The notes beneath the pieces were generated by a model. It worked only from the letters and a program-made list of their open reading frames with translations, did no database searches and was not told the DNA's origin. Shown piece after piece: positions 1,611-51,803 of a stretch of 64,000 nucleotides of DNA. The position numbers were made by a program, and so were the translations under genes. The stretch's first letter is position 1; every line of letters starts with the position of its first letter. The DNA comes from an uncultured Acidobacteriota bacterium (lineage in GTDB: Bacteria > Acidobacteriota > Thermoanaerobaculia > Multivoradales > Multivoraceae), in the NCBI GenBank assembly GCA_963851415.1, contig CAWKPF010000002.1, positions 2,374,526 to 2,438,525 of the forward strand, read 5' to 3'.

Positions 1611-1649
1611 GACTAGGCTCTTTCGATGGCGAGGCGATCCGGCAGCCGC

Positions 1650-2324: not shown

Positions 2325-2388
2325 GACGGTCTCAACCTCACTGAGGGTGTTCAGACCCACGGCCGGGTCGACGGCTACCGACTCCCCG

Positions 2389-3459: not shown

Positions 3460-3723
3460 GGTCGTCTCCGGAGAGGAAGTCTCACAGGGCAAGGGTCGTG
3501 GCGCCGCGACCTGTCGCGGCCCCTTCCCGACCGGCCTGCGCGAAAAGGGGGGTTGGTTGGAGCGGTCTTCTGGAGGTGGGAGCGGACAGGAGCTCGGCGG
3601 CCACAGGTCGTCGAGCGCACGGAGGATACGAGTCTATCAGCGGGTGCGGTTCTACGAAACGCCGGAATGACCCATTTTCCGGCTCGAACCGGCCGCCGCA
3701 GCCTCGGACCGGCTCCCCACAGG

Positions 3724-4563
3724 TCACCCGTCGGCTCGGGGAACCCGCGAAAAGCTGCGCGCGACCCAGCCCTCGAGGATCCTCTGCGCAGTAATGCCTC
3801 GCGAGCGCAGATCGGGGCCCTCGAGCAGCTCCTCGGCCAGCCCGAGCAGGGAGCGTCGCATCTCGGAGTGCTCGCAGCGTCGAGCCGCAGCGAGCACCGT
3901 CGCGCTGGCCCGAGCCCAGGGCTCGCCCGAACGAGGGTCCTCCCAGCCGCCTAGGTCCAGGAGACTGGCGGCATAGGAAAGAACGAAGACCGACGAGCGC
4001 AGCCGAAGCCAGTCCTCGACTGCCGAGACCAGGCGGTCGACGACTTCCTCGTTCGCCTCACCCGTCACGCTCTGTCCCAGGAAAATGGACAGACAACGAC
4101 TGCGCAGCGTCGGCAGCAGATCGGTGGCAGAGGGGGCGAGCAGAAGGAAGTGGCGCGGCGCCGAGTCTGGCGGCTCCTCGAGACTCTTGAGCAGAGCGTT
4201 GGCGGCGCCCCCCGTGAGGGATTCCGCGCTGGTGATCATCAACACCTGGCCCCGGGCCTCGAAGGGACTCTGCTGAATGCTCCGCAGCAGACCACGGGTG
4301 GCATCGGCCGACGTGGAGGTCTTGAGGTCGCGCTCCAGCACCAGGAAGTCAGGATGAAAATGATCTCCGTCTCCGGGGCCTTCGATCCTGCGACAGTGCC
4401 GGCAGGTACCGCAGGGTCGCTCGTCGGGGGCCAGCTCGCAGAGCAGCGTTCGAGCCAGTTCGACACCCGCCGCAATCCGCCCCTCGCGGCTCCCACCGTG
4501 CAAGATCACGCCCGGATAGAGAGCCCCTTCGCGCGCCTTCTCCAATGCTGGATCGATTGCCAT
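3724..4563 (-). CDS. holB: DNA polymerase III subunit delta'
   Basis: ILHGGSREG... and the zinc module PCGTCRHCRRI are typical of HolB. Lies immediately downstream of tmk, the conserved tmk-holB order. Confidence 0.8.
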   Translation of the reverse strand: MAIDPALEKAREGALYPGVILHGGSREGRIAAGVELARTLLCELAPDERPCGTCRHCRRIEGPGDGDHFHPDFLVLERDLKTSTSADATRGLLRSIQQSPFEARGQVLMITSAESLTGGAANALLKSLEEPPDSAPRHFLLLAPSATDLLPTLRSRCLSIFLGQSVTGEANEEVVDRLVSAVEDWLRLRSSVFVLSYAASLLDLGGWEDPRSGEPWARASATVLAAARRCEHSEMRRSLLGLAEELLEGPDLRSRGITAQRILEGWVARSFSRVPRADG

Positions 4564-4571
4564 GTCTGCGC

Positions 4572-5210
4572 TCAGTGCTCCAACCAGCGCTGCATCCAGG
4601 CACGAACCTGTTCCCGGGTGCCATCGCGCGGGCCCTCGGAAGAGACGACCGCGATGCGCTCGGGCTCTTGCTCGGCCAGTGCCAGGAAGCCGGTTCTCAC
4701 CCGGCGGTAGAAGTCGAGCTGCTCGTCGTCGAGCCGGTCCACGCTGCCCTGTCGCCTGCGACCCCGCGAACGCCCTCGGCTTCTCGCCGCCTCGGCCGAG
4801 AGATCGAGCAGCAGGGTATGGTCCGGCCGCCGACCGCCCGTCGCCACGCTCTCGATCGTCTCGATGTCATCCAACGACACACCGCGACCGTATCCCTGGT
4901 AGGCCATGGTCGAATCGGTGAAGCGATCGCACAGTACCCATTGCCCTCGCGCCAACGCCGGCTCGATGACCTCCATCAGATGCTGACGTCGGCTCGCGAA
5001 GACCAACAGGAGCTCGACACGACCGTCGAGCTTCCCCCAACGCGAATCGAGAAAGAGGGAACGAATCTCCTGTCCGAGCGGTGTACCGCCCGGCTCATGG
5101 GTCACACAACAAGGCTGACCCTGCTCTTCGAGCCACTCGGCCGCCCAACGAAGTTGGGTCGACTTCCCGCTGCCGTCGAGCCCTTCGAAAGTCACGAAAC
5201 GCGCAGACAT
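4572..5210 (-). CDS. tmk: thymidylate kinase
   Basis: MSARFVTFEGLDGSGKSTQ P-loop and overall Tmk architecture. Start moved to MSARF; the ORF-track extension to 5282 has no support. Confidence 0.9.
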   Translation of the reverse strand: MSARFVTFEGLDGSGKSTQLRWAAEWLEEQGQPCCVTHEPGGTPLGQEIRSLFLDSRWGKLDGRVELLLVFASRRQHLMEVIEPALARGQWVLCDRFTDSTMAYQGYGRGVSLDDIETIESVATGGRRPDHTLLLDLSAEAARSRGRSRGRRRQGSVDRLDDEQLDFYRRVRTGFLALAEQEPERIAVVSSEGPRDGTREQVRAWMQRWLEH

Positions 5211-5310
5211 GCGTCGGTCAAGATAGCACGCGGGAGATAATGAAAGCAGACGCACTCCGTGCCGAGCGACTCCTCGAAACACGGGGACGCGAGATCGAGA
5301 CCCCTGGGAA

Positions 5311-5730
5311 ATGAGCGAAGTTCGCGAACACCCCGACCTACTGTTCTTCGACGGCGCATGCGGTCTCTGTCACGGCTCGGTGCGATTCGCTGTTCACCGT
5401 GATCGCGATGGGGCGATTCGCTATGCGCCGATCGGAGGGCCGACCTGGCAGCAACACCTGACACCGAAGCAGCGCGAGACCGCGCCGGACTCGGTGCTCG
5501 TCTTGACCGCCGAAGGCGAGCTCCTCGAGCGCAGCGATGCAGCACTTCGCGTCCTGCGAAGGCTCCCTTGGCCCTGGAGCTGGCTCGGTGGGGCTCTGGG
5601 GTGGATCCCGCGGCCGCTGCGCGACGCCACCTACGACTGGGTGGCACGCCGGCGCCGGCGCTGGTTTCGCACGCCCAGCGAGAGCTGTCCACTGGTTCCG
5701 GCCGAGCTGCGGCCACGCTTCGATCCCTAG
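5311..5730 (+). CDS. thiol-disulfide oxidoreductase DCC-family (DUF393) protein
   Basis: LLFFDGACGLCHGSVRF contains the DxxCxxC motif defining the DCC family; 139 aa. Confidence 0.7.
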   Translation: MSEVREHPDLLFFDGACGLCHGSVRFAVHRDRDGAIRYAPIGGPTWQQHLTPKQRETAPDSVLVLTAEGELLERSDAALRVLRRLPWPWSWLGGALGWIPRPLRDATYDWVARRRRRWFRTPSESCPLVPAELRPRFDP

Positions 5731-5873
5731 CTGCGATCGCTCAGTGCTCGACTGGTTTCGAGAAGCTCGAGCGGCGGGTCGGGGGCGACTGACGGCGAGT
5801 GGCGTCAGGCCCCGGTCCCCTTCTCTGTCCGCTCGTTCGCTGCACAGTCGGCTCGATCGCCAGACCGAAGAGG

Positions 5874-7628
5874 CTACAGGTCCACTTCCTCGATCCATGC
5901 CGAGACCGAGGCCGCAAGCATCGGGAGAGTGATCGAACCGCTGCCGAGCACCCGATCGTGAAAGGCGCGGAGCTCGAAGTCCCCCTGAAGCGAATTCTCG
6001 GCCAGGGATCGCAGTCGCCGAATCTCGAGCATGCCCAACATGTAGCTGGTGGCCTGCCCTGGCCAGGCGATGTAGCGGTTGATCTCCGACTCGATGTCAC
6101 CGGGCGGCCAGGCGGTGTTGGAGAGCATGAAGTCCACGGCTTGCTCGCGCGTCCAGCCTTTGGTGTGGAGGCCACTGTCGACCACCAGCCGCGCAGCCCG
6201 GGCCGCCTGGTCCGACAGCATGCCCATGCGATCGAGCGGCCCGCTGTAGAGACCCAGCTCATCGGCCAGCCTCTCGGAGTACAGTCCCCAGCCCTCGACA
6301 TAGCCGGAGTTCCAGGTGTAGCGAGCCAACGGATGGACACGATCCCCGAGCTCGAGCGCGATGGCACCCTGCAGGTGATGTCCCGGATAGGTCTCGTGGT
6401 AGAGCACCGACTGCTGAATGGCACGCGACCGATTCTCCGGCCGGACGACCGCAATGAAGTAGATGCCGGGCCTCGATCCGTCCTCCGAGGAATACACGTA
6501 CTCACCGGTACCGCTCGCTCGGTGCGGGGGATACGGCTCGATCAGGACCTCGGCTCGAGGCAACCGCCCGAAGGCCTCGGGCATCGTGTCGCGGGCGGCA
6601 TCCAGGGCCTCCACCGAGTACTCGAGAACCTCGGCTTCGGTTCGAAAGGTGAACCGAGGGTCGAGATTGAGACTCTGCAGAAAGGACTCGATCTCTCCTC
6701 CGCCGAAGTGTTCGTCGACGAGGGTCTGCATCTCGGCGCGGACGGTGGCGATTTGCTCCAGGCCGATGCGATGGATCTCATCGGCGGCCGGACTGATGGT
6801 GGCAAAGGAGCGCACGAGCAGCGGGTAACAAGCGTCGCCGTCGGGATGGGCGCTCAGTGCGATCTCCTCGCGAGCTGCCGGCAGGTATTCGTTCTCCATG
6901 AAGTCGGCGAAATGCTCGATCGCGGGTCTCGTGCTCTCGTTGAAGACCTTTGCTACGGCCTGGCCGAAGACCGGGTCGTCGCTCCTGGCAGCCATTCCGA
7001 GAAAGGGATTCTCGCTCTCGAGCAGGGAACGGACCTCACCGGGAACGTTGAGAGCCGTGACTCGGGGCGCGCTGTAGCCGAGCTCAAGGCCACGCCTGAG
7101 ATTCTCGACCTCCCTTTCGAGGTAGCCCGCGACCTTGCCGAGTCGAGCCACCGCCTGATCACGGAGCTCGGGTGTCTCGAGAGGCTGCAGTTCGAAGACC
7201 TGCGGCAGGCTGGTGTGCCACGCCGTGATGTCGGCGGCAGCCCACAGCTCGCTACGACATGAGCGAGTCGCGATCGAGCCGGCCAGTTGCTCGTGCAGGA
7301 TGCCGAAGGTCACCCAGTCGCGGCTCCCGATGTCGCCGGGCGCACCGATGTCCTCGAGCTCGCGAAGCCATGCATCCTCCCGGGCCTGCCAGGTAGCCCG
7401 TGCCTCTGGCGAGTTGTCGAAGAGCTCATCGTGACTCCTGCCTGGCAGCGAATAGGAGGTCGCCATTTCGGGGAAACGCTCGATCATGGCTTCCAGGTAT
7501 TCGTCCGCCACCTCTTCGATGCTGCGCCGTGCGGCCTCCGACTGATCCGCTGGCTGGCCGCAGCCCGTGATCAGGGCACAAGCTGGAATGAGCAGAGAGA
7601 GCAGTTTCAGTCCAGTCGGCCTTTTCAT
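5874..7628 (-). CDS. DUF885-family lipoprotein (putative metallopeptidase-like)
   Basis: Signal/lipobox LIPACALITGCGQP; internal HETYPGHHLQ motif characteristic of DUF885; 584 aa. Confidence 0.7.
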   Translation of the reverse strand: MKRPTGLKLLSLLIPACALITGCGQPADQSEAARRSIEEVADEYLEAMIERFPEMATSYSLPGRSHDELFDNSPEARATWQAREDAWLRELEDIGAPGDIGSRDWVTFGILHEQLAGSIATRSCRSELWAAADITAWHTSLPQVFELQPLETPELRDQAVARLGKVAGYLEREVENLRRGLELGYSAPRVTALNVPGEVRSLLESENPFLGMAARSDDPVFGQAVAKVFNESTRPAIEHFADFMENEYLPAAREEIALSAHPDGDACYPLLVRSFATISPAADEIHRIGLEQIATVRAEMQTLVDEHFGGGEIESFLQSLNLDPRFTFRTEAEVLEYSVEALDAARDTMPEAFGRLPRAEVLIEPYPPHRASGTGEYVYSSEDGSRPGIYFIAVVRPENRSRAIQQSVLYHETYPGHHLQGAIALELGDRVHPLARYTWNSGYVEGWGLYSERLADELGLYSGPLDRMGMLSDQAARAARLVVDSGLHTKGWTREQAVDFMLSNTAWPPGDIESEINRYIAWPGQATSYMLGMLEIRRLRSLAENSLQGDFELRAFHDRVLGSGSITLPMLAASVSAWIEEVDL

Positions 7629-7825
7629 GGAGATCCTTTCGTCGGCTCCTTCGGGAGTCAGATCGGGATCCTATAGAAGTCGTTGTCTGATCGACCTCGA
7701 CCGCCCTCTTCGATCCGATCGCGCCAGCCGAGGCCGTGCTCCGGAGCGAGGGCTAGCCGACGGTCCTCACGGGCCCCTGCGATTCCAGGCCGTCGTTGGA
7801 AGCGGGTGGTTGCCGCGCTCCGGCT

Positions 7826-8872
7826 CTATCCGGCAACCACTCGCCAGCTGTGCGTCTTGGCCACGAGCCAGACCGCCTTCCCGGGCATCAGGCCGAGCGC
7901 GCGCACGGCCGCGGGGGTGAGATGAACCCACCACTCGCCGACCCGCAGGAAGACATCGGCGCCCTCCACGACCCACTCGCCGATCGAGCCCGACAAGACA
8001 TTGCGGGCCGAGAGTCCACGCGGCGGCTCGGTCGAGAGCATCAGCTCCTCGGCATCGATGCCCAGCACCAGCTCGGTGCCGGGAGCGTGCAGGAAGGCCG
8101 GCGGGATCGAGATCTCTTCGCCGCTCGCCAGCTCGACCCGGGTCACGCCACCCTCTCGGTCGTGCGCTCGGACCCGAACCGAAACGAGATTCTCCCAGCG
8201 CTCGCCCCCGAAGCGAGAGGTGGCTTCGGCGCCGAGCAGCAGCCGGCGGGCTGGCCCTCGGGCCTCGAGTCGTCCTCGTTCGAGCAGGAGAACTTCATCG
8301 GCGAGTGCCAGCGCCTCTTCTCGCCGGTGGGTCACCACCAGGTATCGGTGCCGGGGACGGAGTCGGCGCAGAAGACCGAGGACCCGCCTCGCGCTTGCCG
8401 GGTCGAGTCCCTGGGTCGGCTCATCGAGCAGAAGCCAGCGCGGCTGCGCCAGGAGCGCCCGGCCGAGCGCCACCCTCCTGCGCTCTCCGCCAGAGAGATG
8501 ACGCGGAGACCGATCGAGAAGCTCACCGAGCTCCAGCTCACCGACCACCGATTCGAAGCCCGCTCGTTCGAGCGGCCGCGGCGTGGCGAAGCCCAGATTC
8601 TGGCGCACGCTCAGGTGGGGAAAGAGCAGTGCGTCTTGCGGCACCCATCCGAAACGTCGTCGGTGGGGAGGCAAGAAGGCGTGCTCGTCCTGAAGCGCCT
8701 CTCCATCGATCACCACCCGACCTTTCGCCCTCCGCAGTCCGAGAATCGACTCGAGCAGAGAGGACTTGCCCGCGCCGGAGGGCCCCAGCACCGCCGCGTG
8801 CGACGCCACGACCGCGCTCACCTCGAGACGAAATCGATCGAGAGGCAACTCGAGGGAGAGCTCCAGCGTCAT
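7826..8872 (-). CDS. modC: molybdate ABC transporter ATP-binding protein with C-terminal TOBE/Mop domain
   Basis: Walker A GPSGAGKSS, signature LSGGERRRVALGRAL, Walker B LLLDEP, C-terminal TOBE-like region. Start MTLELS at 8872 forms an ATGA overlap with the modB stop. Confidence 0.85.
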   Translation of the reverse strand: MTLELSLELPLDRFRLEVSAVVASHAAVLGPSGAGKSSLLESILGLRRAKGRVVIDGEALQDEHAFLPPHRRRFGWVPQDALLFPHLSVRQNLGFATPRPLERAGFESVVGELELGELLDRSPRHLSGGERRRVALGRALLAQPRWLLLDEPTQGLDPASARRVLGLLRRLRPRHRYLVVTHRREEALALADEVLLLERGRLEARGPARRLLLGAEATSRFGGERWENLVSVRVRAHDREGGVTRVELASGEEISIPPAFLHAPGTELVLGIDAEELMLSTEPPRGLSARNVLSGSIGEWVVEGADVFLRVGEWWVHLTPAAVRALGLMPGKAVWLVAKTHSWRVVAG

Positions 8873-9576
8873 CCGGACGACTCCCTTCGTCCATCGTCGA
8901 GGCGACGCTCGCGATAGCCGACCAACAACTCGGTCACCCAGAGTGCGAGAACCGCGAGAACCACCGCGACGCTCGCCAGACGCCACGCACCGACGTCGTC
9001 GCCCACCTGGGCCCGTTGGAAGAGGCCGAGCGCCAGGGTCTGCGTACGCCCGGGAATGTTCCCCGCGACCAGGATCGTGGCACCGAACTCGCCGAGCGCC
9101 CGACTGAACGCCATCAACGCACCCGCTGCGATCCCTCGCCAGGCCAGCGGGAGCTCGATGTCACGAAAACTCTGCCAGCCGTTGCGCCCCAGGGTGCGTG
9201 CCATCTGCACCAGCCTCGGATCCACCTCGTCGAGCGCGCCCCGCACCCCGCGCACCAGGAGCGGGAAGGAGACCACCCCAGCAGCGAGCGTAGCCGCCCA
9301 CCAGGTGAACACGACCCGCACCCCGAGCCATCGATCGAGCGGCCCGCCGAGCGGCCCGTCGGGCGAGAAGAGATAGAGCAGCAAGAGGCCAACCGCCGTG
9401 GGAGGAAGCACCAGGGGTAGAGTGACCAGGGTGTCGAGCACCGCTCTCCCCCGCCACCGTCGACGGCTGAGCAACCAGGCGGTGGCCACCCCCGGAATCA
9501 GGATCAACAGGGTCGACGCGGTCGCCACCCGCAGCGAGAGTGCGACCACCTCGAGCAGGTCGACGCCACCGCTCAT
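8869..9576 (-). CDS. modB: molybdate ABC transporter permease
   Basis: Five or six TM helices and the EAA-like loop MARTLGRNGWQSFRDIELPLAWRGI typical of ModB; 235 aa. Confidence 0.88.
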   Translation of the reverse strand: MSGGVDLLEVVALSLRVATASTLLILIPGVATAWLLSRRRWRGRAVLDTLVTLPLVLPPTAVGLLLLYLFSPDGPLGGPLDRWLGVRVVFTWWAATLAAGVVSFPLLVRGVRGALDEVDPRLVQMARTLGRNGWQSFRDIELPLAWRGIAAGALMAFSRALGEFGATILVAGNIPGRTQTLALGLFQRAQVGDDVGAWRLASVAVVLAVLALWVTELLVGYRERRLDDGRRESSG

Positions 9577-10319
9577 GGCGCGTCCCCACCGTGAAATCCA
9601 TGACGCTCGAAGATCTCACGAGCCGTTGCGCTGGTCAGAGCGTCCATGAACTCGCGGACCTCGGGAGCGATCGATCCATCGGCAGCCGGCAGCGGTGCCG
9701 CCACGTAGTGAACCGCTGGGCCCTCTGCTTCGCCCACCTGGTGGATCACCGTGACCCTGTCGGTGGTGCGCGCGTCGGTGGCATAGACGATCCCGATGTC
9801 GACCGCACCGCTCGCCACCGCATGCAGCGCCGAGCGCACATCGAGCGCGACCACGAGCCGGTCCTCCAGCAGGGGCCAGAGGCCTTCTCGATCGAGCCAT
9901 TGCCGAGCGTAGACCCCTGCGGGGACCCCCTCGGGATCGGCCACGGCTACTCGAGCCGCCTCGAGCAGAGCTTGACGCCAGGGGGGCCGACCACTCCGGG
10001 CAGCAGGCTCCGGAACGATCACCACGAGGCGGTTGGCCGCAACGGAAACCACCGAGGCCGGATCGACTCGTCCGGCATCGATCAGCCGATCCATCTGTTC
10101 GAGGTTCGCCGAGACGAAGAGCTGAGCCGGCGCCGCGGAGAGAATCTGACGGGCGAGCGTGTTGGAGCCGGCAAAGTGGAAGTCGACGTCCAGACCGGCT
10201 TCTCGCTCGACCTCCTCGAGCGCGTCGGCGAGCGAGGCCGCTGCGAAAACCAGGGGAGCCCGCTCCGAATGCGTGCAGGAGAGGAGCGTGATCTCGATGG
10301 CCGCTACGAGGACCACCAT
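9573..10319 (-). CDS. modA: molybdate ABC transporter substrate-binding protein
   Basis: ModA-like periplasmic binding protein (…FAAASLADALEEV…DFHFAGSNTLARQI…VVSVAANRLVVIVP…GIVYATDA). Start trimmed to MVVLVAAIE (10319); the ORF-track N-terminal 114 aa is R/G-rich low-complexity. Confidence 0.8.
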   Translation of the reverse strand: MVVLVAAIEITLLSCTHSERAPLVFAAASLADALEEVEREAGLDVDFHFAGSNTLARQILSAAPAQLFVSANLEQMDRLIDAGRVDPASVVSVAANRLVVIVPEPAARSGRPPWRQALLEAARVAVADPEGVPAGVYARQWLDREGLWPLLEDRLVVALDVRSALHAVASGAVDIGIVYATDARTTDRVTVIHQVGEAEGPAVHYVAAPLPAADGSIAPEVREFMDALTSATAREIFERHGFHGGDAP

Positions 10320-10345
10320 CGCACTTCGGGAGCCACAGATCGGCC

Positions 10346-11981
10346 TCACCCCGGCCTGCCCTCCGGAGCGAAGGACGCCGGACTGCGCAGCCTGGGTAGC
10401 CGTTCTTCGACTTCGGCAGGGGTGAGCCCGAGCCGATCGGCATGCTCGACCAGCGGAGCGAAATCCACCGGATACAGGTTCAGGCGCTCGGGATCGTCGA
10501 GGCCAGCCACATTGCGCGGCTCCAGCTCTCGACGCAGCGAATCCAGGAGATCGGATCGCTCCGCGCTCGGAGCCGTGCCGGCCAGCGTAGCGACTCGGGA
10601 GGCGAAGTACTCGACCGCCGGTGCGATGACCTCGTCCTCCGCACCGAGAAAGCCCTGCCATGCCCAGGCTCCGCGCGACGCCTCCTCGGGCTCGAACAGT
10701 CGCTGCACCGTCTCGGCATGACTCGCGGCGCGGAAGTACACGTGACTCCAGGCGACGAAGAGCTCGAAGTCGTCGAGGGTGGCCTGAGCCGTGTGAATCA
10801 AGCGCTCCGTGTGTTCCGCCTCGAGCCTCAGCAAGTCCCCGTACCGCTCGAGAGCTTCCCAGCCACTCGTCCCCCGATCGGAGGGCACCGACTCCGTCAG
10901 GATGTCAACGAGTCGCTCGACTCCGAGCAGGCTCCACGCGATCCCGGTCGAGAAGAGCGGATCGAAAAAGGCGTAGGCATGAGGTAACAGGGCCCATCGC
11001 CGACCAAAGGCGACCCGAGCCCTCCCGGCTGGCCGAGCGAGGGCGATCGGCCGCACCGGGCGGGCATCTTCGAACTGCCGTCCGAGAGACGGGTACCCCG
11101 AGATCCATCGGTGGAACGCACCCTCCGGATCGAGCAGGTCGATCTTCGGGTCGTCCACCAGGACGCCGACGCTGGTCAGACCGTCGTCGAAGCGCAGCTG
11201 ATACATCCAGCCCTGGGAGGTGAGATGGTGGACCGCGGACCATTCCTCCGGATAGGGATCTCGACTGCAATCGAGTCCGGCCGCGAGACGAAAGGGCGCC
11301 ACGCCCTCGAAATGCGCGTAGAGCAATGGCCGGACGCACTCGGACTCCTCGACCCCTTCTCCCAGGGCCTCGGCAAGGACACTTCCCCTGCCTCCCGCGT
11401 CGATCGCGAACTCGGCCCTGATCTCGAGCTCTGCGGTCTCGTCTTCACCGGCTGCGCGACCCGCGGCGTGCCCGGCGACGCAGCGAAGTGCGATGCCCCC
11501 CGGAGTCTCTCGGACCGCCACGACCTCATGGTGCGGAAGGTATCGAACGCCCGCTGCAACGGCCCGTCGGAGTAGATGGTGATCGACGTCACTACGCAGC
11601 CAATGGGTGTCCGCGATCGCGTCATCGGGAGAGGCGGCCACCATCAGCCGGCGACTGTTCACCGAATCCCCCCGAAACTCCTGATCCTTCTGATGATGGT
11701 AGAAGGTGAACCCTCGTTTGAGACCTCGGCCCAGGGACGGCAGGTCACGAAGCCAGCGGCCATGGGCCGCCAGGGAATAGAGGTCGCTCTGGCCATAGCG
11801 AGTCGCCAGGCGCTCCAGCACGAGGTTGCCGAGCGGCGTCGTAGACTCGCCCAGCGCGAACCGAGGATGGTCGCCGCGCTCGAGCAGCACCACGTCCCGG
11901 CCGGAGTGAGCGAGAAGACGGGCGAGCAGTGAGCCGGCGAAACCGGATCCGATGATCGCGATCTCGTGCTCCGTGCTCACG
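10346..11981 (-). CDS. FAD-dependent oxidoreductase, flavin-dependent (tryptophan-type) halogenase-like
   Basis: GTG start VSTEHEIAIIGSGFAGSLLARLL (GxGxxG dinucleotide fold); FALGESTTP resembles the halogenase GxGEATxP lysine-region motif; QGWMYQLRF is a degenerate WxWxIP. The 809-aa ORF-track call is an over-extension (upstream 260 aa is R/G/A-rich shadow of the radical-SAM gene). Confidence 0.65.
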
Positions 11982-13029
11982 GTCGCCCCCCCGGCTCGAG
12001 ACCCCGATCGCCGAGCTCGCAAAGGCGAGCCAATCGATCCTGGTCCTCGACCGACCGATACTGCTCCGGACCCGCGAGTCGTTCCAGGTCCCAGGGATCG
12101 AGCAGCAGCAACGGACCTCTGGTCCCCTCCGCTCGCACCTGCCCCAGCTCCTGCGCCGCCGCCTCGCAGAGCTCCTCGACGAGACTCAGGGTCGGCACTT
12201 GGAAGAGACCGTCTCGTTCCAGCTTCTCGAGGCTCCCGTTGCCGCCTCGCACCGGAATCAAGGTCACCACCGAGGCGCCCAACTCGACCGCCAGCCGGAT
12301 CGATCGTCGCAGCCATGGCTCCTGCTTTCCAGGGCTCAAGAAGGGAACCCCGAGCAGGAGGAACACCCGCAGGCCGACGCCCGCTGCTTCGAGGCGAGAC
12401 GAGGCCTGGCGGAAGTCGTCCACGGTCGCCTCCTTGCCGATGGCGTGCAGCACCTCGGGATTCGCCGTCTCGAGACCGAGTGCCACCTCGAGCCGGGCCG
12501 ATCCCAGCCAGGCCCGGCTCTCGGTCAACACGGAGTCGCGAATCAGACGTGGATGACACTCGACGGTCACTTGCCGTGCCTCTCTCAAACGGTGCAACAG
12601 CCGCTGCCGGTCCTCGGCCGGGACCGCACGGTCCTCGAAGAAATTGCTCGCGTTGTAGAGCTTGACCTGGGTCTCGTGAAGTGGGATTGCACGCGCCTCG
12701 AGCTCGCCCAGCGCCAGCTCGAGCTGGGCAGGCAGTGCTCCGAGTGGAGTCGGGAAGCTCGAGGTGTACTTCCACAAGTCACAGAAGACACAACTGAACG
12801 GACACTCGGCACCGGCCAGGAAGACCGTCATCGCCGGCCGCGCAGGGCCTGCGAGCGAGGGCTCCTCCTCGATACTGACCCCGATCGGCCTCCAGAGGTC
12901 CGGCTCTACGCGCCCGGGACGCATCGAGCGCACCGACGCCGGGTCGAAGGTCCGGCCGACCCGGGGCGAGCCCTCGCAAGCCCGTGGATCGCTGTTCGGC
13001 CCGCGAGGAACCGATCGAGGCGAGGTCAT
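11977..13029 (-). CDS. radical SAM protein
   Basis: AECPFSCVFCDLW = CxxxCxxC cluster-binding motif. Start MTSPRS at 13029 sits 2 nt after the upstream gene's TGA (TGAggATG). The end overlaps the start of the next gene by 5 nt. Confidence 0.65.
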   Translation of the reverse strand: MTSPRSVPRGPNSDPRACEGSPRVGRTFDPASVRSMRPGRVEPDLWRPIGVSIEEEPSLAGPARPAMTVFLAGAECPFSCVFCDLWKYTSSFPTPLGALPAQLELALGELEARAIPLHETQVKLYNASNFFEDRAVPAEDRQRLLHRLREARQVTVECHPRLIRDSVLTESRAWLGSARLEVALGLETANPEVLHAIGKEATVDDFRQASSRLEAAGVGLRVFLLLGVPFLSPGKQEPWLRRSIRLAVELGASVVTLIPVRGGNGSLEKLERDGLFQVPTLSLVEELCEAAAQELGQVRAEGTRGPLLLLDPWDLERLAGPEQYRSVEDQDRLARLCELGDRGLEPGGRP

Positions 13030-13031
13030 CC

Positions 13032-14384
13032 TCAGCGATTGACCCGCGAGAGGAAGTACTCCCGATAGCGCTCCGGGGGCACGTCGAACAATTGCTCGAA
13101 GACCGCCCGGTCCGAAGCGCCATGTTGGAACCTGCGCTTCGGAAACACGGGGAAGTCGACGCCCATGACTCGGGCCACGCCACGACGCACCACTTCTCCC
13201 TTGAGATCGTAGAGGCGCTCGTGCGATCCCTCGGTCAGCTGGGCAAAGGGGATCGCCTCGGCCACTGCGATCACAGAAGGCCGAGTCAGGGGACTGAAGC
13301 CCTCGAACCCGAGCAGGCTCGCCGGCGCGTAGGTACGCACGGTACCGCGGCTCAGACCACCGCTGTAGGTCAGTGAGTGCTTGATCGCCTCGACTCCCCA
13401 ACCCTCCTGATAGAGCATCTGATTCGATACCACGGAGCGAATCGTGAGCTCGTCGTTCTCCTCGATCGGGTAGTCCTTGAGATTCTCGTCTCCGCCGTCG
13501 CCATCGACCAGGAATCGCCACTCCGGATAGCGCTCACGAATCCCCTCGAGCAGTGAGATCGCCACCGTCGCGCACTCGACATCGAGCGGCTTGTAGTCCT
13601 CGATGACCTCGACCGCGCGCAGCGGATCGAGCCGCTCCGGAGCCACCTCGATCACCTCGCCCAGCATCTCCAACTCGGTGCGCCGCAAGAATTCGAGGGC
13701 CTGGTCGGCATCCGCACCGCCGTCACCCACACGCAAGGTAAAGGCCTTGAGCCGGGTCGGCGCCTGCCCGGACTGGAGCATCGCATGATGCAGCGCGAGC
13801 GTGACCAGGCCGCTGTCGATCCCACCCGAGAAGCAGACACCGATCGGCTCGGCGCGCTCCTTCTCGGACTGGCCTTCGAGCCAACGACGCACCTCGTCGA
13901 CGACGGCGGCCACATAGCGCTCACCGATCACGTCGAGGTCCGCGGGGAGAGACGCCAGCGGCGGATCGAAGAACCGCGTCTGGGTCGGATTCGGATCCGG
14001 GCAGCCGATCAGACGAAGGGTCGTGACATGGTGAGCGGGAACCATCCTCGTGTAGGTCGGATGGAACTGCGAGCCATACCCTTCCTCCTCGAGGCGCTGC
14101 GCGATCGTGTCGATCCGATCCGAGACGATCAGGAACGGCCCGGCCTCCTCCTTGGCAAGAAAGTAGCGCAGCGGTCGATCGAGGGAGCGGGCCAGAAAGA
14201 CCCGCTCTGCGTCCCGGGCCACCAGGGCATAGGAGCCCTCCACTTCGAGCATGCGCTCCGGATGGCGTCGCAGCAGCTCCCGAGCATCTTCGAGACTCAT
14301 GTTCTGAAGCCGTTGACACGAGGGCGGAGTCAAATCGACCAGCCGGTGGATGGGCAGCGGACCACGGGTAGCGGGCGTCGTCAT
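13032..14384 (-). CDS. asparagine-synthetase-B-like protein lacking the N-terminal Cys nucleophile (lasso-cyclase / beta-lactam-synthetase-like fold)
   Basis: PP-loop VCFSGGIDSGLV (SGGxDS ATP-pyrophosphatase motif). Degenerate GATase-like N-domain (GSYALVARD…RPLRYF…FLIVSDRI) with no Cys2. Start at MTTPATRG (14384). Confidence 0.65.
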   Translation of the reverse strand: MTTPATRGPLPIHRLVDLTPPSCQRLQNMSLEDARELLRRHPERMLEVEGSYALVARDAERVFLARSLDRPLRYFLAKEEAGPFLIVSDRIDTIAQRLEEEGYGSQFHPTYTRMVPAHHVTTLRLIGCPDPNPTQTRFFDPPLASLPADLDVIGERYVAAVVDEVRRWLEGQSEKERAEPIGVCFSGGIDSGLVTLALHHAMLQSGQAPTRLKAFTLRVGDGGADADQALEFLRRTELEMLGEVIEVAPERLDPLRAVEVIEDYKPLDVECATVAISLLEGIRERYPEWRFLVDGDGGDENLKDYPIEENDELTIRSVVSNQMLYQEGWGVEAIKHSLTYSGGLSRGTVRTYAPASLLGFEGFSPLTRPSVIAVAEAIPFAQLTEGSHERLYDLKGEVVRRGVARVMGVDFPVFPKRRFQHGASDRAVFEQLFDVPPERYREYFLSRVNR

Positions 14385-14527
14385 CGGGGAGTACTCCAGA
14401 GACGGCCAGGCAGGAGACCTGACCGGAGGGATCGACAGGGCGATGCGACGATTATAGTGAGGCTCTTCGCTGACCACCTATCGAACGAGGCCTCTGGCCC
14501 ACAGTCCCTGTGATCGAGGAGATTCGC

Positions 14528-15127
14528 ATGACCGCCATCCCACACCACCCGCGTACACTAAACGGCAGACCATCGGCGCTCTGCCTCTGGCTCGGCCTGA
14601 GCGTCACCCTTCTCGCCTGCGGCAGCGAGCCCGAACCGCAGACCCAACCGGTCGCCGAGTCCGTGACCAGCCCCGCCACCGGGGTGACCTTCTCGGTGCT
14701 GCCCGAGGGATTCGAAGTGGCGCGCAACGACGCCGATGGCTTCGAGCTCCGCTCCAGCTCCCCGGAACGCCCCGGTGTGATGTGGGTCGAGGCAGGCGAG
14801 GTGAGCGACTTCGGAATCGAGCTCGATTCCTTCGTCTGGCAGGACCGCGAGAGCTACGCCGAGCGGCCCGGAGGCGAGTATCTCGGCGGCAACAAGCTCG
14901 TTTCCCAGCTCGGCGACGCGTACTACTCCCGGGGGCGCTTCGACGGCGAGGGACGCGAGGAGGAGGTGGCCGTGTTCGCCCTGCACCCGAGCGTCAACCG
15001 GCTGCTCACGCTGCGCTATCGCTATCCGGCCGGAGAGGACAGCGCGCAGCGGCTGCCGGAGCTCCTCGAATTGCTGGGAGCGATCGAGGCCGCAGCGGTC
15101 GAGCCGGAAGCGCCCCCGGAGCAGTGA
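14528..15127 (+). CDS. hypothetical lipoprotein
   Basis: Signal plus lipobox LSVTLLACGSE; no recognisable domain. Confidence 0.45.
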   Translation: MTAIPHHPRTLNGRPSALCLWLGLSVTLLACGSEPEPQTQPVAESVTSPATGVTFSVLPEGFEVARNDADGFELRSSSPERPGVMWVEAGEVSDFGIELDSFVWQDRESYAERPGGEYLGGNKLVSQLGDAYYSRGRFDGEGREEEVAVFALHPSVNRLLTLRYRYPAGEDSAQRLPELLELLGAIEAAAVEPEAPPEQ

Positions 15128-15289
15128 CATTGGGGGTCAGTCTTGGGAAAAAGTGGTATCCGGGTGACGTTTTTGGTCCGCTCAGCGAGAGCGTCGACAC
15201 AGTTTCCTGAGCTTCTCCACTTTTCGTAGGCAGAATGTTCGTGTAAACTTCGCGATGCCCTGCAGGGGAGGCCCGCAAGGGGAGGGATC

Positions 15290-16399
15290 ATGCCGCCGAG
15301 TTTGAACGCACTCTTGAAGACCATGGTGGAGCAGGGAGGCTCCGATCTCCACCTGACGATCAATTCACCGCCCCAGGTCCGGGTGGACGGCAAGCTGCGG
15401 CCCCTGAATCTGCCGCCGCTCTCCCCCACCGAGACCAAGCAGATCGCCTACTCGATCCTGACCGACAACCAGAAACACCGGTTGGAAGAGGACCTCGAGA
15501 TCGATTTCTCCTTCGGGATCCGAGGACTGGCACGCTTCCGCGCCAACGTCTTCCATCAACGAGGCGCCATTGCAGCGGTCTTCCGACAGATCCCCTACGA
15601 GATCCTGAGCTTCTCTCAGCTCGGCCTCCCGGCGGTGATCGAGAAGATCAGCGACAAGCCCCGCGGGCTGGTCCTCGTGACCGGACCGACCGGCTCGGGA
15701 AAGTCCACGACGCTGGCCGCGATGATCGACAAGGTCAATCGCGAGCGCCACGAGCACATCCTCACCATCGAGGATCCGGTCGAGTACCTGCACGAGCACA
15801 AGGCCTGCCTGATCAACCAGCGCGAGCTCGGGGCCGATACCCACGGATTCAGCAATTCGCTGCGCTCGGCGCTGCGACAGGACCCCGATGTCGTGCTCAT
15901 CGGTGAGATGCGAGACCACGAAACGATCGAGGCCGCCCTGCGCATTGCCGAGACCGGACATCTCACCTTCGCCACGCTGCACACCAATTCGGCGGCCCAG
16001 TCGATCAACCGCATCATCGACGTCTTCCCGGCCCACCAGCAGTCTCAGATTCGCACCCAGCTCTCGTTCGTGCTGGAGGGCATCATCTGTCAGAGCCTGA
16101 TTCCCAAGGCAAGCGGCAAGGGGCGTGCGCTCGCCCTCGAAGTGCTGGTCCCCAGCTCGGCAATTCGTAACCTGATCCGGGAAGACAAGGTGCATCAGAT
16201 CTACGGAATGATGCAGTCCGGCCAGGCGAAGCACGGCATGCTGACCTTCAACCAGTCCCTCGCCAGCCTGTACTTCCGCCGCCTGATCACGCTTCAAACT
16301 GCAATGAACCGGTCGTCGATCCCGGACGAGCTCCAGGAGATCATCAGCCGGGGCCCCGCCGCCGTTGGCCTGACGGTTCCTAACGAAGGACGGAGATAG
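15290..16399 (+). CDS. pilT: type IV pilus retraction ATPase PilT
   Basis: GLVLVTGPTGSGKSTTLAAMID Walker A, Asp box, and GMxxxxQ region; full-length similarity to PilT/PilU. RBS GGGGAGGG upstream. Confidence 0.92.
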   Translation: MPPSLNALLKTMVEQGGSDLHLTINSPPQVRVDGKLRPLNLPPLSPTETKQIAYSILTDNQKHRLEEDLEIDFSFGIRGLARFRANVFHQRGAIAAVFRQIPYEILSFSQLGLPAVIEKISDKPRGLVLVTGPTGSGKSTTLAAMIDKVNRERHEHILTIEDPVEYLHEHKACLINQRELGADTHGFSNSLRSALRQDPDVVLIGEMRDHETIEAALRIAETGHLTFATLHTNSAAQSINRIIDVFPAHQQSQIRTQLSFVLEGIICQSLIPKASGKGRALALEVLVPSSAIRNLIREDKVHQIYGMMQSGQAKHGMLTFNQSLASLYFRRLITLQTAMNRSSIPDELQEIISRGPAAVGLTVPNEGRR

Positions 16400-16405
16400 A
16401 AAACG

Positions 16406-17611
16406 ATGCCCAATTTCACCTGGAAAGGGAAGACTCGCGCCGGCCAGGCGCAAGAAGGAACCCTGCTGGCCGACAGCAAAGACGCGGCCGTCGCGGCACT
16501 CCGACGCCAGCAGATTCAGGTCACGAGCATTCGCGAGAAGGGCAAGTCGATCCCTCTCATTCCCCGATTGCCGAGGCGGGTCACCCCCAAGCAGCTCGCG
16601 ATCTTCACCCGCCAGTTCTCCGTGATGCTCGACGCGGGCCTTCCTCTCGTCCAGTGTCTCGAGATCCTCGGCAACCAGGAAGAGAATCGCACCTTCAAGG
16701 AGATCCTGATCACGGTGCGCACCGACGTCGAGCAGGGCAACTCGCTCGCCGAGGCCATGCGCAAGCACCCCAAGGCCTTCGACGATCTCTACGTCAACAT
16801 GATCGCGGCCGGCGAGGCGGGCGGTATCCTCGACATCATTCTGCAGCGCCTGTCGACCTACATCGAAAAGGCCGTCAAGCTGCGCAATCAGGTCACCTCG
16901 GCGATGATGTATCCGACTTCGATCGTCGTGATTGCCTCGGGTGTCGTCTTCCTCATCTTGTGGAAGGTGATCCCGGTCTTCGCAGCGATGTTCGCCGGCC
17001 TCGGTGGCGAGCTGCCTTTCCTCACTCGAGTGGTGGTCGGAGCGAGCAACTTCCTGGGCCGCTATGCCATTTTCATCTTCATCGGCATCGGCCTCTCGAT
17101 CTGGGGAATTCGCCGATACCACAAGACGCACTCTGGCCGACGCGTTCTCGACGGACTCATCCTCAAGATTCCCGTCCTCGGCATGCTCATGATGAAGATC
17201 TCGGTGGCTCGCTTCTGCCGAACTCTCGCCACTCTGACCTCCTCCGGTGTGCCGATCCTCGACGGCCTCGAGATCACGGCCAAGACCTCTGGCAACGCCA
17301 TCATCGAAGACTCGATCATGAGTGTGCGTAAGTCGGTCGAGGAAGGTAAGACGATCAGTGAGCCGCTCTCGGAGACCGGCATCTTCCCCGCCATGGTCTG
17401 CCAGATGATCAACGTCGGCGAACAGACGGGTGCTCTCGATCAGATGCTCTCCAAGATCGCGGACTTCTACGAGGACGAAGTCGACACCGCCGTCGAGGGT
17501 CTCATGAAGCTCCTCGAACCGATCATGATCACCGTTCTGGGCGGCATCATCGGAACCATCGTCACCGCGATGTATCTGCCGATGTACTCGATCCTGAACA
17601 AGATCGGCTGA
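16406..17611 (+). CDS. pilC: type IV pilus inner-membrane platform protein PilC (GspF family)
   Basis: Two GspF repeats (…LSVMLDAGLPLVQCLEIL…, …LATLTSSGVPILDGLEI…); 401 aa; immediately downstream of pilT. Confidence 0.9.
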   Translation: MPNFTWKGKTRAGQAQEGTLLADSKDAAVAALRRQQIQVTSIREKGKSIPLIPRLPRRVTPKQLAIFTRQFSVMLDAGLPLVQCLEILGNQEENRTFKEILITVRTDVEQGNSLAEAMRKHPKAFDDLYVNMIAAGEAGGILDIILQRLSTYIEKAVKLRNQVTSAMMYPTSIVVIASGVVFLILWKVIPVFAAMFAGLGGELPFLTRVVVGASNFLGRYAIFIFIGIGLSIWGIRRYHKTHSGRRVLDGLILKIPVLGMLMMKISVARFCRTLATLTSSGVPILDGLEITAKTSGNAIIEDSIMSVRKSVEEGKTISEPLSETGIFPAMVCQMINVGEQTGALDQMLSKIADFYEDEVDTAVEGLMKLLEPIMITVLGGIIGTIVTAMYLPMYSILNKIG

Positions 17612-17715
17612 GGTGAATCCCGGGAGGGCGCTGGTATCCTGGCCGACGCTCCTCCGTCGTCCGGGAGCCCGTTCGCCCGGCTCCCTTCTCCACCAACGGA
17701 GCCTTCGAGGCAGCG

Positions 17716-19350
17716 ATGAAACCGCTCGCTAATCAGCTCAAGTGGATCATCGGCCTTCGGCTCGTCGTCGTGACGAGCGCAGTGCTCCTGCAGCTGCTGC
17801 TGCGGCTCTTCGCCGTCGACGTGGACCTGAGGGCGGGCTACCTCTACCTGGTGGCGGCAGGCGTCTACGTCGCCAGCTTCATCTACATGACGCTGCTCCG
17901 CCTGTTCCCCGAGCGACTGTTCGCGCAGGCGTACCTCCAGTTCATCGTCGATCTCCTGATCATCACGGGTCTGGTCAGCGTGACCGGTGGCATCTCGAGC
18001 CCCTTCTCGATGCTCTACCTGGTGATCATCTCCGTAGCCGCCGCACTGCTGCGACGGCGCGCCGGAATGGTCATCGCCCAGATCGCGTGGTTGCTCTACG
18101 CCGGACTCCTCGTCGTCCTCTACTCCCAGGACCCGAACTCCGAAACCGTTCCTCTGCTGATCTACAACCTCTTCTCCACCCTGCTCGGCTTTGCCGGGGT
18201 CGCCGTTCTCACCTCGTACCTGGCAAGAAACATCGCCCGGGCCGAAGAGGAGTTGGTGGCCGCGACGACCAGCCTCGAGGAGCTCGAGGTGATGCACCGC
18301 GACGTGATCGAGTCGATCGCGTCCGGGATCATCACCACCGACCTCGAAGGGCGAATCGTGAGCATCAATCGTGCGGGAAGGGAGATTCTCGATCGCTCGG
18401 AGGGGGACCTTCTCGGATCTGCCGTGTACAAGACCGGCCTCATGACGCAGGAGCAGTGGAGCCAGCTGTCCACAGCCAGCTCGATCCCGGAGCGCGTCCG
18501 GGACGAAGGCGAAGTCCGGCGAGGAGGTGAGGTCCTGTATGTCGGCTTCTCGGTCAATGACCTCAGTGACGCGGACGGAGAGCGGCGCGGCTACATCATC
18601 ATCTTCCAGGACCTCACCGACTGGAGAAAGCTCCAGGAGGAAGTCCAGCTCAAGGACCGAATGGCCGCCGTCGGCGAGCTGGCTGCAGGAATCGCCCACG
18701 AGATCGGGAACCCACTGGCAGCGATCTCGGGATCGGTACAGATGCTCTCCCACTCGGCGAGTCCCGAGGGGTCGACCGAGAAGCTTCTGGGCATCATTCT
18801 GCAGGAGAGTCGACGGCTCGACCGCACGATCAAGAGCTTCCTACGCTTCGCCCGTCCGCGCGAACGAACGGCGATCGAGTTCGACATCGCCCAGCTCCTG
18901 GCCGAGAACCTCACCCTCCTCCGAAACAGCGAAGAGGTGCTGACCGGACACCTGATCGAGCTCGACCTCGACCCGCCGTCGGCACTTCTCCAGGGCGACC
19001 CCGACCAGATCAGTCAGATCTTCTGGAATGTGACCCGCAATGCCTTGCGCGCCATGCCCGAAGGCGGCACGTTGCGCATCGGGGGGCGTATGGCTCAAGA
19101 CAGCTACCTCATTCGATTTGCCGACACCGGGCGGGGAATGTCCGAGCGCGAACGAGCCAACCTGTTTCACCCGTACCACACCTTCTTCGACGGCGGCGTC
19201 GGAATCGGAATGGCGATCGTCTATCGAATCGTCGAGGAGCACGGCGGCCGTATCTCCGTCCACAGCGCCCCCGACGCCGGAACCATCGTGGAAGTCCGCC
19301 TCCCGGTTTCTCGAGCCCAGGCCATTCCGTCCATCGAGGCCACCGCATGA
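17716..19350 (+). CDS. pilS: sensor histidine kinase, PilS-like
   Basis: N-terminal multi-TM region, PAS-like segment, H-box AAGIAHEIGNPLAAISG and HATPase_c (ADTGRGM…GGVGIGMAIV). Stop overlaps the pilR start (ATGA). Confidence 0.8.
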   Translation: MKPLANQLKWIIGLRLVVVTSAVLLQLLLRLFAVDVDLRAGYLYLVAAGVYVASFIYMTLLRLFPERLFAQAYLQFIVDLLIITGLVSVTGGISSPFSMLYLVIISVAAALLRRRAGMVIAQIAWLLYAGLLVVLYSQDPNSETVPLLIYNLFSTLLGFAGVAVLTSYLARNIARAEEELVAATTSLEELEVMHRDVIESIASGIITTDLEGRIVSINRAGREILDRSEGDLLGSAVYKTGLMTQEQWSQLSTASSIPERVRDEGEVRRGGEVLYVGFSVNDLSDADGERRGYIIIFQDLTDWRKLQEEVQLKDRMAAVGELAAGIAHEIGNPLAAISGSVQMLSHSASPEGSTEKLLGIILQESRRLDRTIKSFLRFARPRERTAIEFDIAQLLAENLTLLRNSEEVLTGHLIELDLDPPSALLQGDPDQISQIFWNVTRNALRAMPEGGTLRIGGRMAQDSYLIRFADTGRGMSERERANLFHPYHTFFDGGVGIGMAIVYRIVEEHGGRISVHSAPDAGTIVEVRLPVSRAQAIPSIEATA

Positions 19351-51461: not shown

Positions 51462-51524
51462 GGACTTGGTTCGTACCTGAGCGAAGCAGAACGTTCGAAT
51501 TCAAAACGCAGCGAAGGAGTCAGA

Positions 51525-51794
51525 ATGTCAAATGCGCAGACGACCGTTCACCAGAAGGTGAAAGACTTCATCCTCAAGGAGTTCCTCCCCGGTGAGAGCC
51601 CCGAGAACCTGACCGACGATACTCCGCTGGTTACCGGGGGGATTCTCGATTCTCTCGCGACCCTCAAACTGGTCGCGTTTCTCGAGGAGACCCAGGGGAT
51701 CAAGGTCGAAGCTCACGAGATGGGCGCCGACAACTTCGATTCCGTGAACACGATCGCCGCGTACGTGGGCTCCAAGTCCGAGGCCGCTGGGTAA
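51525..51794 (+). CDS. D-alanyl-carrier-protein (DltC)-like small carrier protein
   Basis: 89 aa; GGILDSLATLKLVAFLEE matches the DltC phosphopantetheine-attachment motif GLLDSFGTVELL. Confidence 0.75.
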   Translation: MSNAQTTVHQKVKDFILKEFLPGESPENLTDDTPLVTGGILDSLATLKLVAFLEETQGIKVEAHEMGADNFDSVNTIAAYVGSKSEAAG

Positions 51795-51803
51795 ACCTCC
51801 ATC

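Follow-up and report, generated by a model that had tools for sequence, protein, structure and literature searches.

A widespread three-gene cassette encoding an AsnB-like ligase, a radical SAM enzyme, and a halogenase-family flavoenzyme adjoins modABC in one Acidobacteriota lineage

We analyzed a 64,000-nucleotide stretch (the window) of contig CAWKPF010000002.1, from an uncultured Acidobacteriota bacterium, in which six consecutive genes occupy the minus strand from position 14384 down to 7826. Strand reading and the table of open reading frames (ORFs) give their order as AsnB-like enzyme, radical S-adenosylmethionine (SAM) enzyme, flavin adenine dinucleotide (FAD)-dependent enzyme, modA, modB, and modC (Table 1). 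All six ORFs lie where an initial annotation of the locus had put them, as three linked genes running into modABC, and its family assignments are borne out by Pfam searches for the first three products (Asn_synthase, 34 bits; Radical_SAM, 26.3 bits, below the Pfam cutoff; Trp_halogenase, 41.8 bits) as well as for ModA, ModB, and ModC. Comparison with other genomes suggests that the first three genes, hereafter called the trio, constitute an autonomous, vertically widespread three-enzyme operon, an orphan tailoring cassette assembled from known superfamilies.

Table 1. Genes, motifs, and intergenic region of the trio-modABC locus (window coordinates).
Feature	Position	Strand	Remarks
AsnB-like PP-loop enzyme (putatively acyl-adenylating)	13032..14384	-	450 aa, ATG 14384; trio gene 1
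Radical SAM enzyme, RaSEA-like	11977..13029	-	350 aa from ATG 13029 or 315 aa from ATG 12924; trio gene 2
FAD-dependent enzyme, flavin-dependent halogenase family (PltM/CtcP-like)	10346..11980	-	544 aa, GTG start; trio gene 3
modA, molybdate-binding lipoprotein	9573..10349	-	start at GTG 10349 or ATG 10319
modB, permease	8869..9576	-	ATGA overlap with modA
modC, ATPase with TOBE domain	7826..8872	-	ATGA overlap with modB
PP-loop motif SGGIDS, residues 186-191 of the AsnB-like protein	13812..13829	-	sequence reading
CxxxCxxC cluster-binding motif CPFSCVFC of the radical SAM enzyme	12781..12804	-	sequence reading
Lys88 codon of the FAD enzyme	11717..11719	-	HMMER alignment to 6bza/6bzt (Lys of PltM GIKLGF)
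Degenerate WxWxIP motif (W-M-Y-Q-L-R) of the FAD enzyme	11192..11209	-	aligned with PltM GWLWVIP
Intergenic region separating the trio from a divergent gene for a 205-aa lipoprotein; presumed promoter region	14385..14509	.	gene geometry only

Our comparison covered 163 fetched loci other than the window, with denominators limited to loci that have room for the gene in question. The AsnB-like gene is immediately followed by the radical SAM gene in 123 of 132 such loci, the FAD gene comes downstream in 85 of 94, and the radical SAM and FAD genes commonly overlap. Because the same order recurs in more than 120 other loci, the arrangement goes far beyond chance, which answers the neighborhood comparison that had been proposed for the trio. 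A scan of one genome per species returned at least 566 matching stretches encoding a relative of the AsnB-like protein, and a metagenome scan added a further 574. The hosts are mainly soil and marine Gemmatimonadota and Acidobacteriota (Thermoanaerobaculia and Vicinamibacteria), together with single metagenome-assembled genomes (MAGs) assigned to Pirellulaceae, Abditibacterium, 'Lysobacterales', and 'Deltaproteobacteria'; no AsnB-like gene was found in plasmid records. One locus (L081) comes from the RefSeq genome of a culturable carrier, Acidobacterium sp. S8. In another (L017), a deletion takes out the radical SAM gene.

Unbiased clustering of flanking ORFs revealed no universal fourth partner, with no further gene family present in more than 21 of 82 or 13 of 83 loci. 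All three proteins score below the NCBIfam cutoffs, and our searches of the literature on the enzyme combination, on TIGR01210, and on halogenases of these phyla found no description of the trio, in agreement with the earlier statement that it could not be assigned to a known pathway. Screening with PADLOC gave no defense-system match beyond a marginal E1-E2 hit of the FAD enzyme (E = 0.0036). The ammosamide cluster, considered as a precedent, pairs an AsnB-like enzyme with a halogenase but has no true radical SAM enzyme, and we set it aside as unrelated.

The AsnB-like gene call, from ATG 14384 to the stop at 13032, is identical to database protein P0001. The product had been described as lacking the glutaminase nucleophile Cys2, and this is so under any start: even the longest upstream extension, from GTG 14477, brings no cysteine into the N-terminal region, so start-site correction cannot restore the nucleophile. 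The N-terminal cysteine is likewise absent in 23 of 23 aligned homologues, and the N-domain is shortened, without a glutaminase half-domain. In the PP-loop motif SGGxDS, the two serines, the two glycines, and the aspartate are invariant in 83 of 83 family members, and the motif DGDGGDE is invariant in the family as well. AsnB homologues without the cysteine adenylate carboxylates and form amides or lactams without glutamine.

A single-sequence search of the PDB with the AsnB-like protein gave no match, whereas a family profile reached human ASNS (2e-13) and Escherichia coli AsnB (1e-10), over the PP-loop half only, and extended to beta-lactam synthetase and CarA at E values of 1e-3 to 4e-3. 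An AlphaFold2 model (predicted local distance difference test score [pLDDT] of 77) has the two-domain AsnB fold without the glutaminase nucleophile, its PP-loop domain starting at around residue 150. Its best Foldseek matches are beta-lactam synthetase, the carbapenam synthetase CarA, AsnB/ASNS, and TsnB9 (E about 3e-10), with 1mc1, 1jgt, 1q19, and 1mbz as the top PDB entries. Segments 126-142 and 294-343 are the best conserved parts of the protein, yet the least confidently modeled, and may form an interface or a lid; the loops that would correspond to those with the catalytic Tyr-Glu dyad and Lys of beta-lactam synthetase (residues 304-343) have low model confidence.

Across phyla, the AsnB-like protein is 58-74% identical, whereas its radical SAM and FAD partners are only about 35-50% identical. 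Its close homologues, counted as clusters at the 90% level, run into the thousands, and only 674 clusters were recovered at E ≤ 1e-3 among 1.84 billion representatives at 50% identity; judged by these sequence comparisons, the family is narrow and well separated from ordinary AsnB. The JGI name 'asparagine synthase (glutamine-hydrolysing)' is unsupported, given the missing Cys2 and a score on TIGR01536 of 34.1 bits, far below the equivalog cutoff of 267.1. We also discarded apparent ligase-radical SAM fusions (P0251, 761 aa; P0278, 534 aa; and P0288), which are artefacts arising from frameshifted read-through of high-GC DNA, and more distant AsnB-like paralogues of about 30% identity (L084, and L085 from a Nanoarchaeota MAG), which lack the radical SAM and FAD partners and offered no functional lead.

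The second trio protein belongs to a family in which the three cysteines of CxxxCxxC and the DLW that follows them are invariant (75 of 75 members). Its structural model is confident (pLDDT 90.6) and matches only generic radical SAM barrels; no sequence relative was found in the PDB, and Pfam and NCBIfam searches gave no match to a SPASM or RRE domain. The sole significant family match is to TIGR01210, the RaSEA family (78.8 bits, E = 4e-22), and it lies below the cutoff of 212, as does that of the orthologue from locus L083 (91.2 bits, E = 7e-26); a weak match to TIGR01212 (MnmL) was also seen. The RaSEA score is far under the equivalog cutoff, and the automatic name 'archaeosine synthase beta-subunit' is unsupported. 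Most family members end in two CxxC motifs spaced by about 20 residues. The pair has been lost from the window enzyme (11977-12110, minus strand) and from those of L003, L015, L054, and L071, and since these copies do without it, it seems dispensable, perhaps forming a structural zinc ribbon.

The affinities of the radical SAM enzyme call for comparison with tRNA modification. RaSEA, in complex with the lysine-attaching enzyme ArcS, turns the preQ0-lysine adduct into the amidine G+ (PMC11298593), and MnmL/YtqA has been proposed to take the place of MnmC1 in the step from cmnm5s2U to nm5s2U (bioRxiv 10.1101/2023.12.21.572861). By extension, the trio might modify a base of tRNA or of another nucleic acid, with activation by the PP-loop enzyme, trimming by an enzyme of the RaSEA/Elp3/MnmL clan, and a finishing step by the flavoenzyme. 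Such a role would fit the fact that the only significant family matches of the radical SAM enzyme are tRNA-modifying enzymes, as well as the wide vertical distribution of the trio and the high conservation of its ligase; many PP-loop ATPases, moreover, act on tRNA. We nevertheless consider it quite improbable. The three proteins are acidic (median pI 5.7-6.2), which is weak evidence against a nucleic-acid substrate, and no PUA, THUMP, or TRAM domain was detected in them by Pfam or NCBIfam. Neither tgt, arcS, nor tRNA genes are conserved in the flanks of the trio. The flavoenzyme specifically resembles PltM, whose substrates are free phenols, and the neighbors of the trio in one sub-lineage are phenol-hydroxylase genes.

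On sequence evidence, the FAD enzyme is clearly a member of the flavin-dependent halogenase family. A phmmer search of the PDB matched it to PltM (1e-36, 130 bits) and to the tetracycline 7-halogenase CtcP (7e-33), with the PltM alignment extending into the C-terminal region. PltM and CtcP halogenate free phenolic small molecules. The first reading of the locus spoke of partial flavin-halogenase motifs, and that wording is apt, for GESTTP and GWMYQL are present and the family motifs are only partly kept. The GxGxxG motif reads GSGFAG, its three glycines conserved in every one of the 61 sequences with coverage there (63 orthologues in the set), and FxxPxxSxG reads FFDPLFSTG, with F, P, S, and G conserved in 62-63 of 63. 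Lys88, which aligns with the lysine of PltM GIKLGF, is invariant (63 of 63); we take its counterparts to be K87 of PltM and K79 of PrnA, the catalytic lysine of halogenases. The WxWxIP motif, on the other hand, is not retained, the family consensus being W-x-Y-x-L-[R/P] (W in 63 of 63; Y in 59 of 63 and W in 4 of 63; L in 63 of 63; R in 41 and P in 15). The enzyme has no reductase domain. In nine loci of one sub-lineage, a flavin reductase gene lies directly upstream of the trio, which would be the only indirect support for a putative halide-dependent halogenation with FADH2 from a separate reductase.

Weak NCBIfam matches of the FAD enzyme to LodB, GoxB, and QhpG (49-60 bits for the last), enzymes that hydroxylate Trp, raise a different prospect, namely that the trio serves to mature a protein or peptide whose gene lies elsewhere in the genome, such as a ribosomally synthesized and post-translationally modified peptide (RiPP) or a protein-derived cofactor. 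The ligase would then form an isopeptide or amide bond in the manner of a lasso cyclase, the radical SAM enzyme would install cross-links, and the flavoenzyme would hydroxylate or halogenate Trp or Tyr. Lasso cyclases are indeed among the AsnB homologues that lack the cysteine, and the very high conservation of the ligase suits a macromolecular substrate. We judge this improbable all the same, as the PltM match lies far above that to QhpG and the radical SAM enzyme has neither a SPASM nor an RRE match. In the loci searched, no conserved small or precursor ORF occurs within 700 nt on either side of the trio, where only lineage-specific shadow ORFs were seen, which agrees with the earlier remark that no precursor peptide was apparent nearby; nor does a candidate substrate gene adjoin the cassette in any lineage. 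A lasso B-protein or RRE protein, a protease, and an exporter are likewise not conserved in the vicinity.

Several optional neighbors recur beside the trio. In a Vicinamibacterales sub-lineage (L083 at 1032-9670, L086-L090, L092, L097, L098, and L112), whose AsnB-like protein is about 48% identical to that of the window, the gene order is cytochrome c, bicupin, HpaB-type phenol hydroxylase (717 bits on TIGR02310), flavin reductase, and, on the same strand, the trio, followed by a convergent LysR gene. Genes for an SsuABC-like importer of the NitT/TauT family stand upstream, downstream, or divergent of the trio in the Acidobacteriota metagenome loci L103, L115, L132, L145, L147, and L152, and on both of its sides in a locus from an Abditibacterium MAG (L079 at 637-8185), so that this type of importer accompanies the trio in two phyla and in differing arrangements. 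The Abditibacterium locus also carries a class I methyltransferase gene between the ligase and radical SAM genes. Insertions within the trio are heterogeneous, and we did not take them as pathway members; besides this methyltransferase, they comprise a Ser/Thr-kinase-like ORF in L087 and L098, judged by sequence motif, and a TonB_C ORF in L049.

Such neighborhoods could indicate that an anionic aromatic compound is imported and then broken down or salvaged, a route in which the importer takes up the substrate, the HpaB, cupin, and FAD enzymes oxidize or dehalogenate the ring, and the ligase and radical SAM enzyme process the side chain. The Vicinamibacterales layout, from cytochrome c to LysR, resembles aromatic catabolic operons; SsuABC-like importers adjoin loci of Acidobacteriota as well as that of Abditibacterium; and in the window an ABC importer, ModABC, directly follows. 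Most loci, however, have no transporter or regulator next to the trio, and the family score of ModA assigns it confidently to the binding of molybdate rather than of organic anions. No catabolic pathway employing a flavoenzyme of the halogenase fold is known to us, and oxygen-sensitive radical SAM enzymes seem uncommon in aerobic catabolism. On balance, we regard a catabolic role as unlikely.

The adjacency to modABC had implied a functional coupling of the trio to molybdate uptake. That the neighbors encode a molybdate transporter is well supported: ModA scores 142 bits on TIGR01256 (cutoff 62.5) and ModB 216 bits on TIGR02141 (cutoff 183), while ModC, with 232 bits on TIGR02142, falls under the cutoff of 285 but has this family as its best match, together with Pfam ABC_tran and TOBE. 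The coupling itself fares poorly. modA and modB adjoin the trio in only one of the 163 other loci, L013, and the contexts elsewhere are many and unrelated; modABC is missing downstream of the trio even in L003, which at 71% identity is the nearest locus to that of the window. In L013, the order on one strand is trio-modABC-tmk-holB, and in the window it is trio-modABC-DUF885-(DCC)-tmk-holB. Because modABC accompanies the trio only in these two loci, within the same synteny, the link is a lineage-specific adjacency that looks like a single event. As far as these comparisons go, modABC is a local neighbor and no member of the conserved cassette.

Within the window, the junctions are compatible with a single six-gene transcript, as had been suggested. 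The TGAggATG motif cited for coupling of the first two genes exists (13027-13034, comprising the AsnB-like stop and the candidate radical SAM start ATG 13029), but the tightness of that coupling is uncertain. The database call for the radical SAM protein (P0121, 315 aa) begins at ATG 12924. The intervening 105 nt (12925-13029) have a GC content at second codon positions (GC2) of 0.74 versus 0.44-0.54 in the surrounding genes, a value atypical for coding DNA, so ATG 13029, which lies 2 nt past the AsnB-like stop, may not be the true start and the gap could be anything from 2 to 107 nt. The radical SAM stop and FAD start, said to overlap by 5 nt at 11977-11981, actually share 4 nt (GTGA, 11977-11980). 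The 26-nt gap reported between the FAD gene and modA is correct only if modA starts at ATG 10319; from GTG 10349, which yields a better lipoprotein signal peptide (MRPICGSRSAMVVLVAAIEITLLSC), the start would overlap the FAD stop (GTGA, 10346-10349). A consensus scan of 7400-15400 found no terminator-like and no sigma-70-like element, the predicted fold of the FAD/modA junction does not surpass that of shuffled controls (z = -0.12), and the six genes have the base composition of their neighbors. Given the start/stop overlaps, the lack of a terminator consensus, and the unremarkable junction fold, co-transcription of all six genes is plausible. The promoter that had been expected near the start of the trio is presumed at 14385-14509 from the divergent gene geometry only, and neither a sigma-70 consensus nor an Rfam match marks it. 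Gene calling from GC content at third codon positions proved unreliable in the trio region, where antisense frames scored equally high, and it was therefore not used as evidence there.

One could still suppose that the trio is tied to molybdenum, for instance by making a catechol-type, molybdate-binding metabolite or by tailoring a molybdenum-related cofactor, and is co-expressed with ModABC for that reason. The chain of 4-nt overlaps from the radical SAM gene to modC in the window, uninterrupted by any terminator-like feature, would be in keeping with this, as would the same gene order in L013 and the presence of HpaB-type, catechol-forming enzymes beside the trio in another lineage. We hold it to be very improbable, and the comparative data suggest that it is the least likely of the four alternatives considered here: modABC adjoins the trio in a single other locus, whose shared synteny speaks for one evolutionary event, a scan of 7000-15500 against Rfam families, the molybdenum cofactor (Moco) riboswitch included, gave no match at E ≤ 1, and the radical SAM enzyme is not MoaA-like in either its family or its structure matches. 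The function of the trio should not be inferred from its adjacency to the molybdate transporter.

Beyond modC lie genes for a DUF885 lipoprotein (5874-7628, minus strand) and a DCC1-like thiol-disulfide oxidoreductase (5311-5730, plus strand), followed by tmk (4572-5282) and holB (3724-4563), both on the minus strand. Since tmk and holB are also found near the trio in L013 and in 'Multivorans' loci, an old local synteny is suggested. On the other side, divergent from the trio, is the plus-strand gene for a 205-aa putative lipoprotein without a Pfam hit (14510-15127), homologues of which stand just upstream of the trio in L004-L007, L009, L014, L021, and L045 (Thermoanaerobaculia/'Candidatus Multivorans'), often with pilT beyond. 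It is followed in the window by a plus-strand type IV pilus block (15290-20831) encoding PilT, PilC, a PilS-like histidine kinase (6TM_PilS), and a sigma-54 response regulator. A small acyl-carrier-type cassette occupies 48897-54515 on the plus strand and encodes an 854-aa membrane protein and an 89-aa acyl carrier protein-like ORF, both without a Pfam hit, along with an AMP-binding ligase and an acyl-CoA dehydrogenase.

The reading we favor, which we find quite possible while stopping short of calling it probable, is that the trio acts on a small molecule and modifies it, an aromatic (phenolic) carboxylate being the likeliest substrate. modABC is adjacent only in the present lineage. A small aromatic carboxylate is suggested by the PltM/CtcP-like character of the flavoenzyme, by the co-directional flavin reductase and phenol hydroxylase genes of one lineage, by the methyltransferase and organic-anion-type importers of others, by the absence of a linked precursor or substrate gene, and by the acidity of the three proteins. 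In the first step, the AsnB-like enzyme would use its PP-loop to adenylate the carboxylate, and the acyl group would pass to an amine other than glutamine-derived ammonia, such as an amino-acid donor or an intramolecular amine. In the second, the RaSEA-like enzyme, probably in complex with the ligase, would abstract a hydrogen atom and bring about C-N scission or rearrangement of the attached group; on the model of ArcS-RaSEA, where a lysine adduct is trimmed, this would leave only the nitrogen and so compensate for the missing glutaminase domain. A ligase of this kind, without an ammonia-generating domain and consistently accompanied by a RaSEA-like enzyme, could draw its nitrogen from an amino acid. 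In the third step, the PltM-like enzyme, supplied with FADH2 by a separate flavin reductase, would halogenate or hydroxylate the ring. We arrive at the substrate class, the sequence of steps, and the chemistry by analogy.

Several observations weigh against this proposal. In about eight loci, the AsnB-like gene has no adjoining radical SAM or FAD gene. The characterized relatives in the radical SAM clan (RaSEA, MnmL/YtqA, and Elp3) act on tRNA and not on small molecules. Halogenation is not assured, because the WxWxIP motif is degenerate. The HpaB/flavin-reductase and Ssu-like neighbors are confined to sub-lineages and could reflect chance synteny. An identity of 58-74% between ligases of different phyla is not what secondary metabolism usually shows and would be in keeping with a macromolecular substrate or with a housekeeping function, and the favored substrate and product are themselves predictions.

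A bolder version of the small-molecule proposal would have the ligase and the RaSEA-like enzyme form a bacterial amidation machine, with an amino acid as nitrogen donor, acting on a small aromatic acid that is also halogenated by a true PltM-like halogenase. The ligase would attach the amino acid through an acyl-adenylate, and the radical SAM enzyme would remove the carbon skeleton so that just the nitrogen stays behind, as ArcS-RaSEA does on tRNA. We offer it as a long shot, again argued by analogy. Were it correct, Acidobacteriota and Gemmatimonadota would make an unseen, widespread, and possibly organohalogen metabolite, and if the PltM-like enzyme truly halogenates, these phyla would be a major unrecognized natural source of organohalogens. 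In any case, at least several hundred species from two phyla that are abundant in soil and sea but poorly cultured carry the cassette, and the automatic names of its AsnB-like and radical SAM proteins are unsupported across thousands of sequences. That an AsnB homologue without a glutaminase is paired with a RaSEA-like radical SAM enzyme suggests that attach-then-trim nitrogen transfer has a second use, away from tRNA.

The trio can be set beside several characterized systems. With AsnB/ASNS, the AsnB-like enzyme shares a homologous PP-loop half, including SGGxDS and a GDGGDE motif that matches the GEGSDE of AsnB, but not Cys2 or the glutaminase half-domain. Lasso cyclases of the McjC type are likewise AsnB homologues without a glutaminase nucleophile and form an amide bond through an acyl-adenylate; the precursor peptide, leader protease, and RRE protein of lasso peptide systems, however, are neither present nor conserved beside the trio. 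Closest in fold are beta-lactam synthetase, of clavulanate biosynthesis, and CarA, which have the same two-domain AsnB fold with a PP-loop and no N-terminal cysteine, and from this modeled likeness acyl-adenylation and amide formation would be expected of the AsnB-like enzyme too. The two differ from it in sequence (only 13-18% identity), in their longer N-domain, and in context, the trio being without clavam or carbapenem genes.

The FAD enzyme keeps the GxGxxG, Lys, and FxxPxxSxG signatures of PltM and CtcP and, like them, has no reductase domain, whereas WxWxIP is replaced throughout its family and its setting is a three-gene operon rather than a polyketide cluster. For the radical SAM enzyme, the nearest system is ArcS-RaSEA of archaeosine synthesis in Euryarchaeota. 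The trio hosts are bacterial, with no ArcS partner, tgt, or preQ0 genes in the flanks of the trio loci, the proteins are acidic, most of the trio radical SAM enzymes carry the C-terminal CxxC pair, and they are partnered by an ATP-dependent AsnB-like ligase where RaSEA has the ArcTGT-like ArcS. The two systems nonetheless have in common the CxxxCxxC motif and a radical SAM enzyme encoded alongside one that might add a group bearing an amine, and it is from ArcS-RaSEA that the attach-then-trim logic of our proposal is borrowed (PMC11298593).

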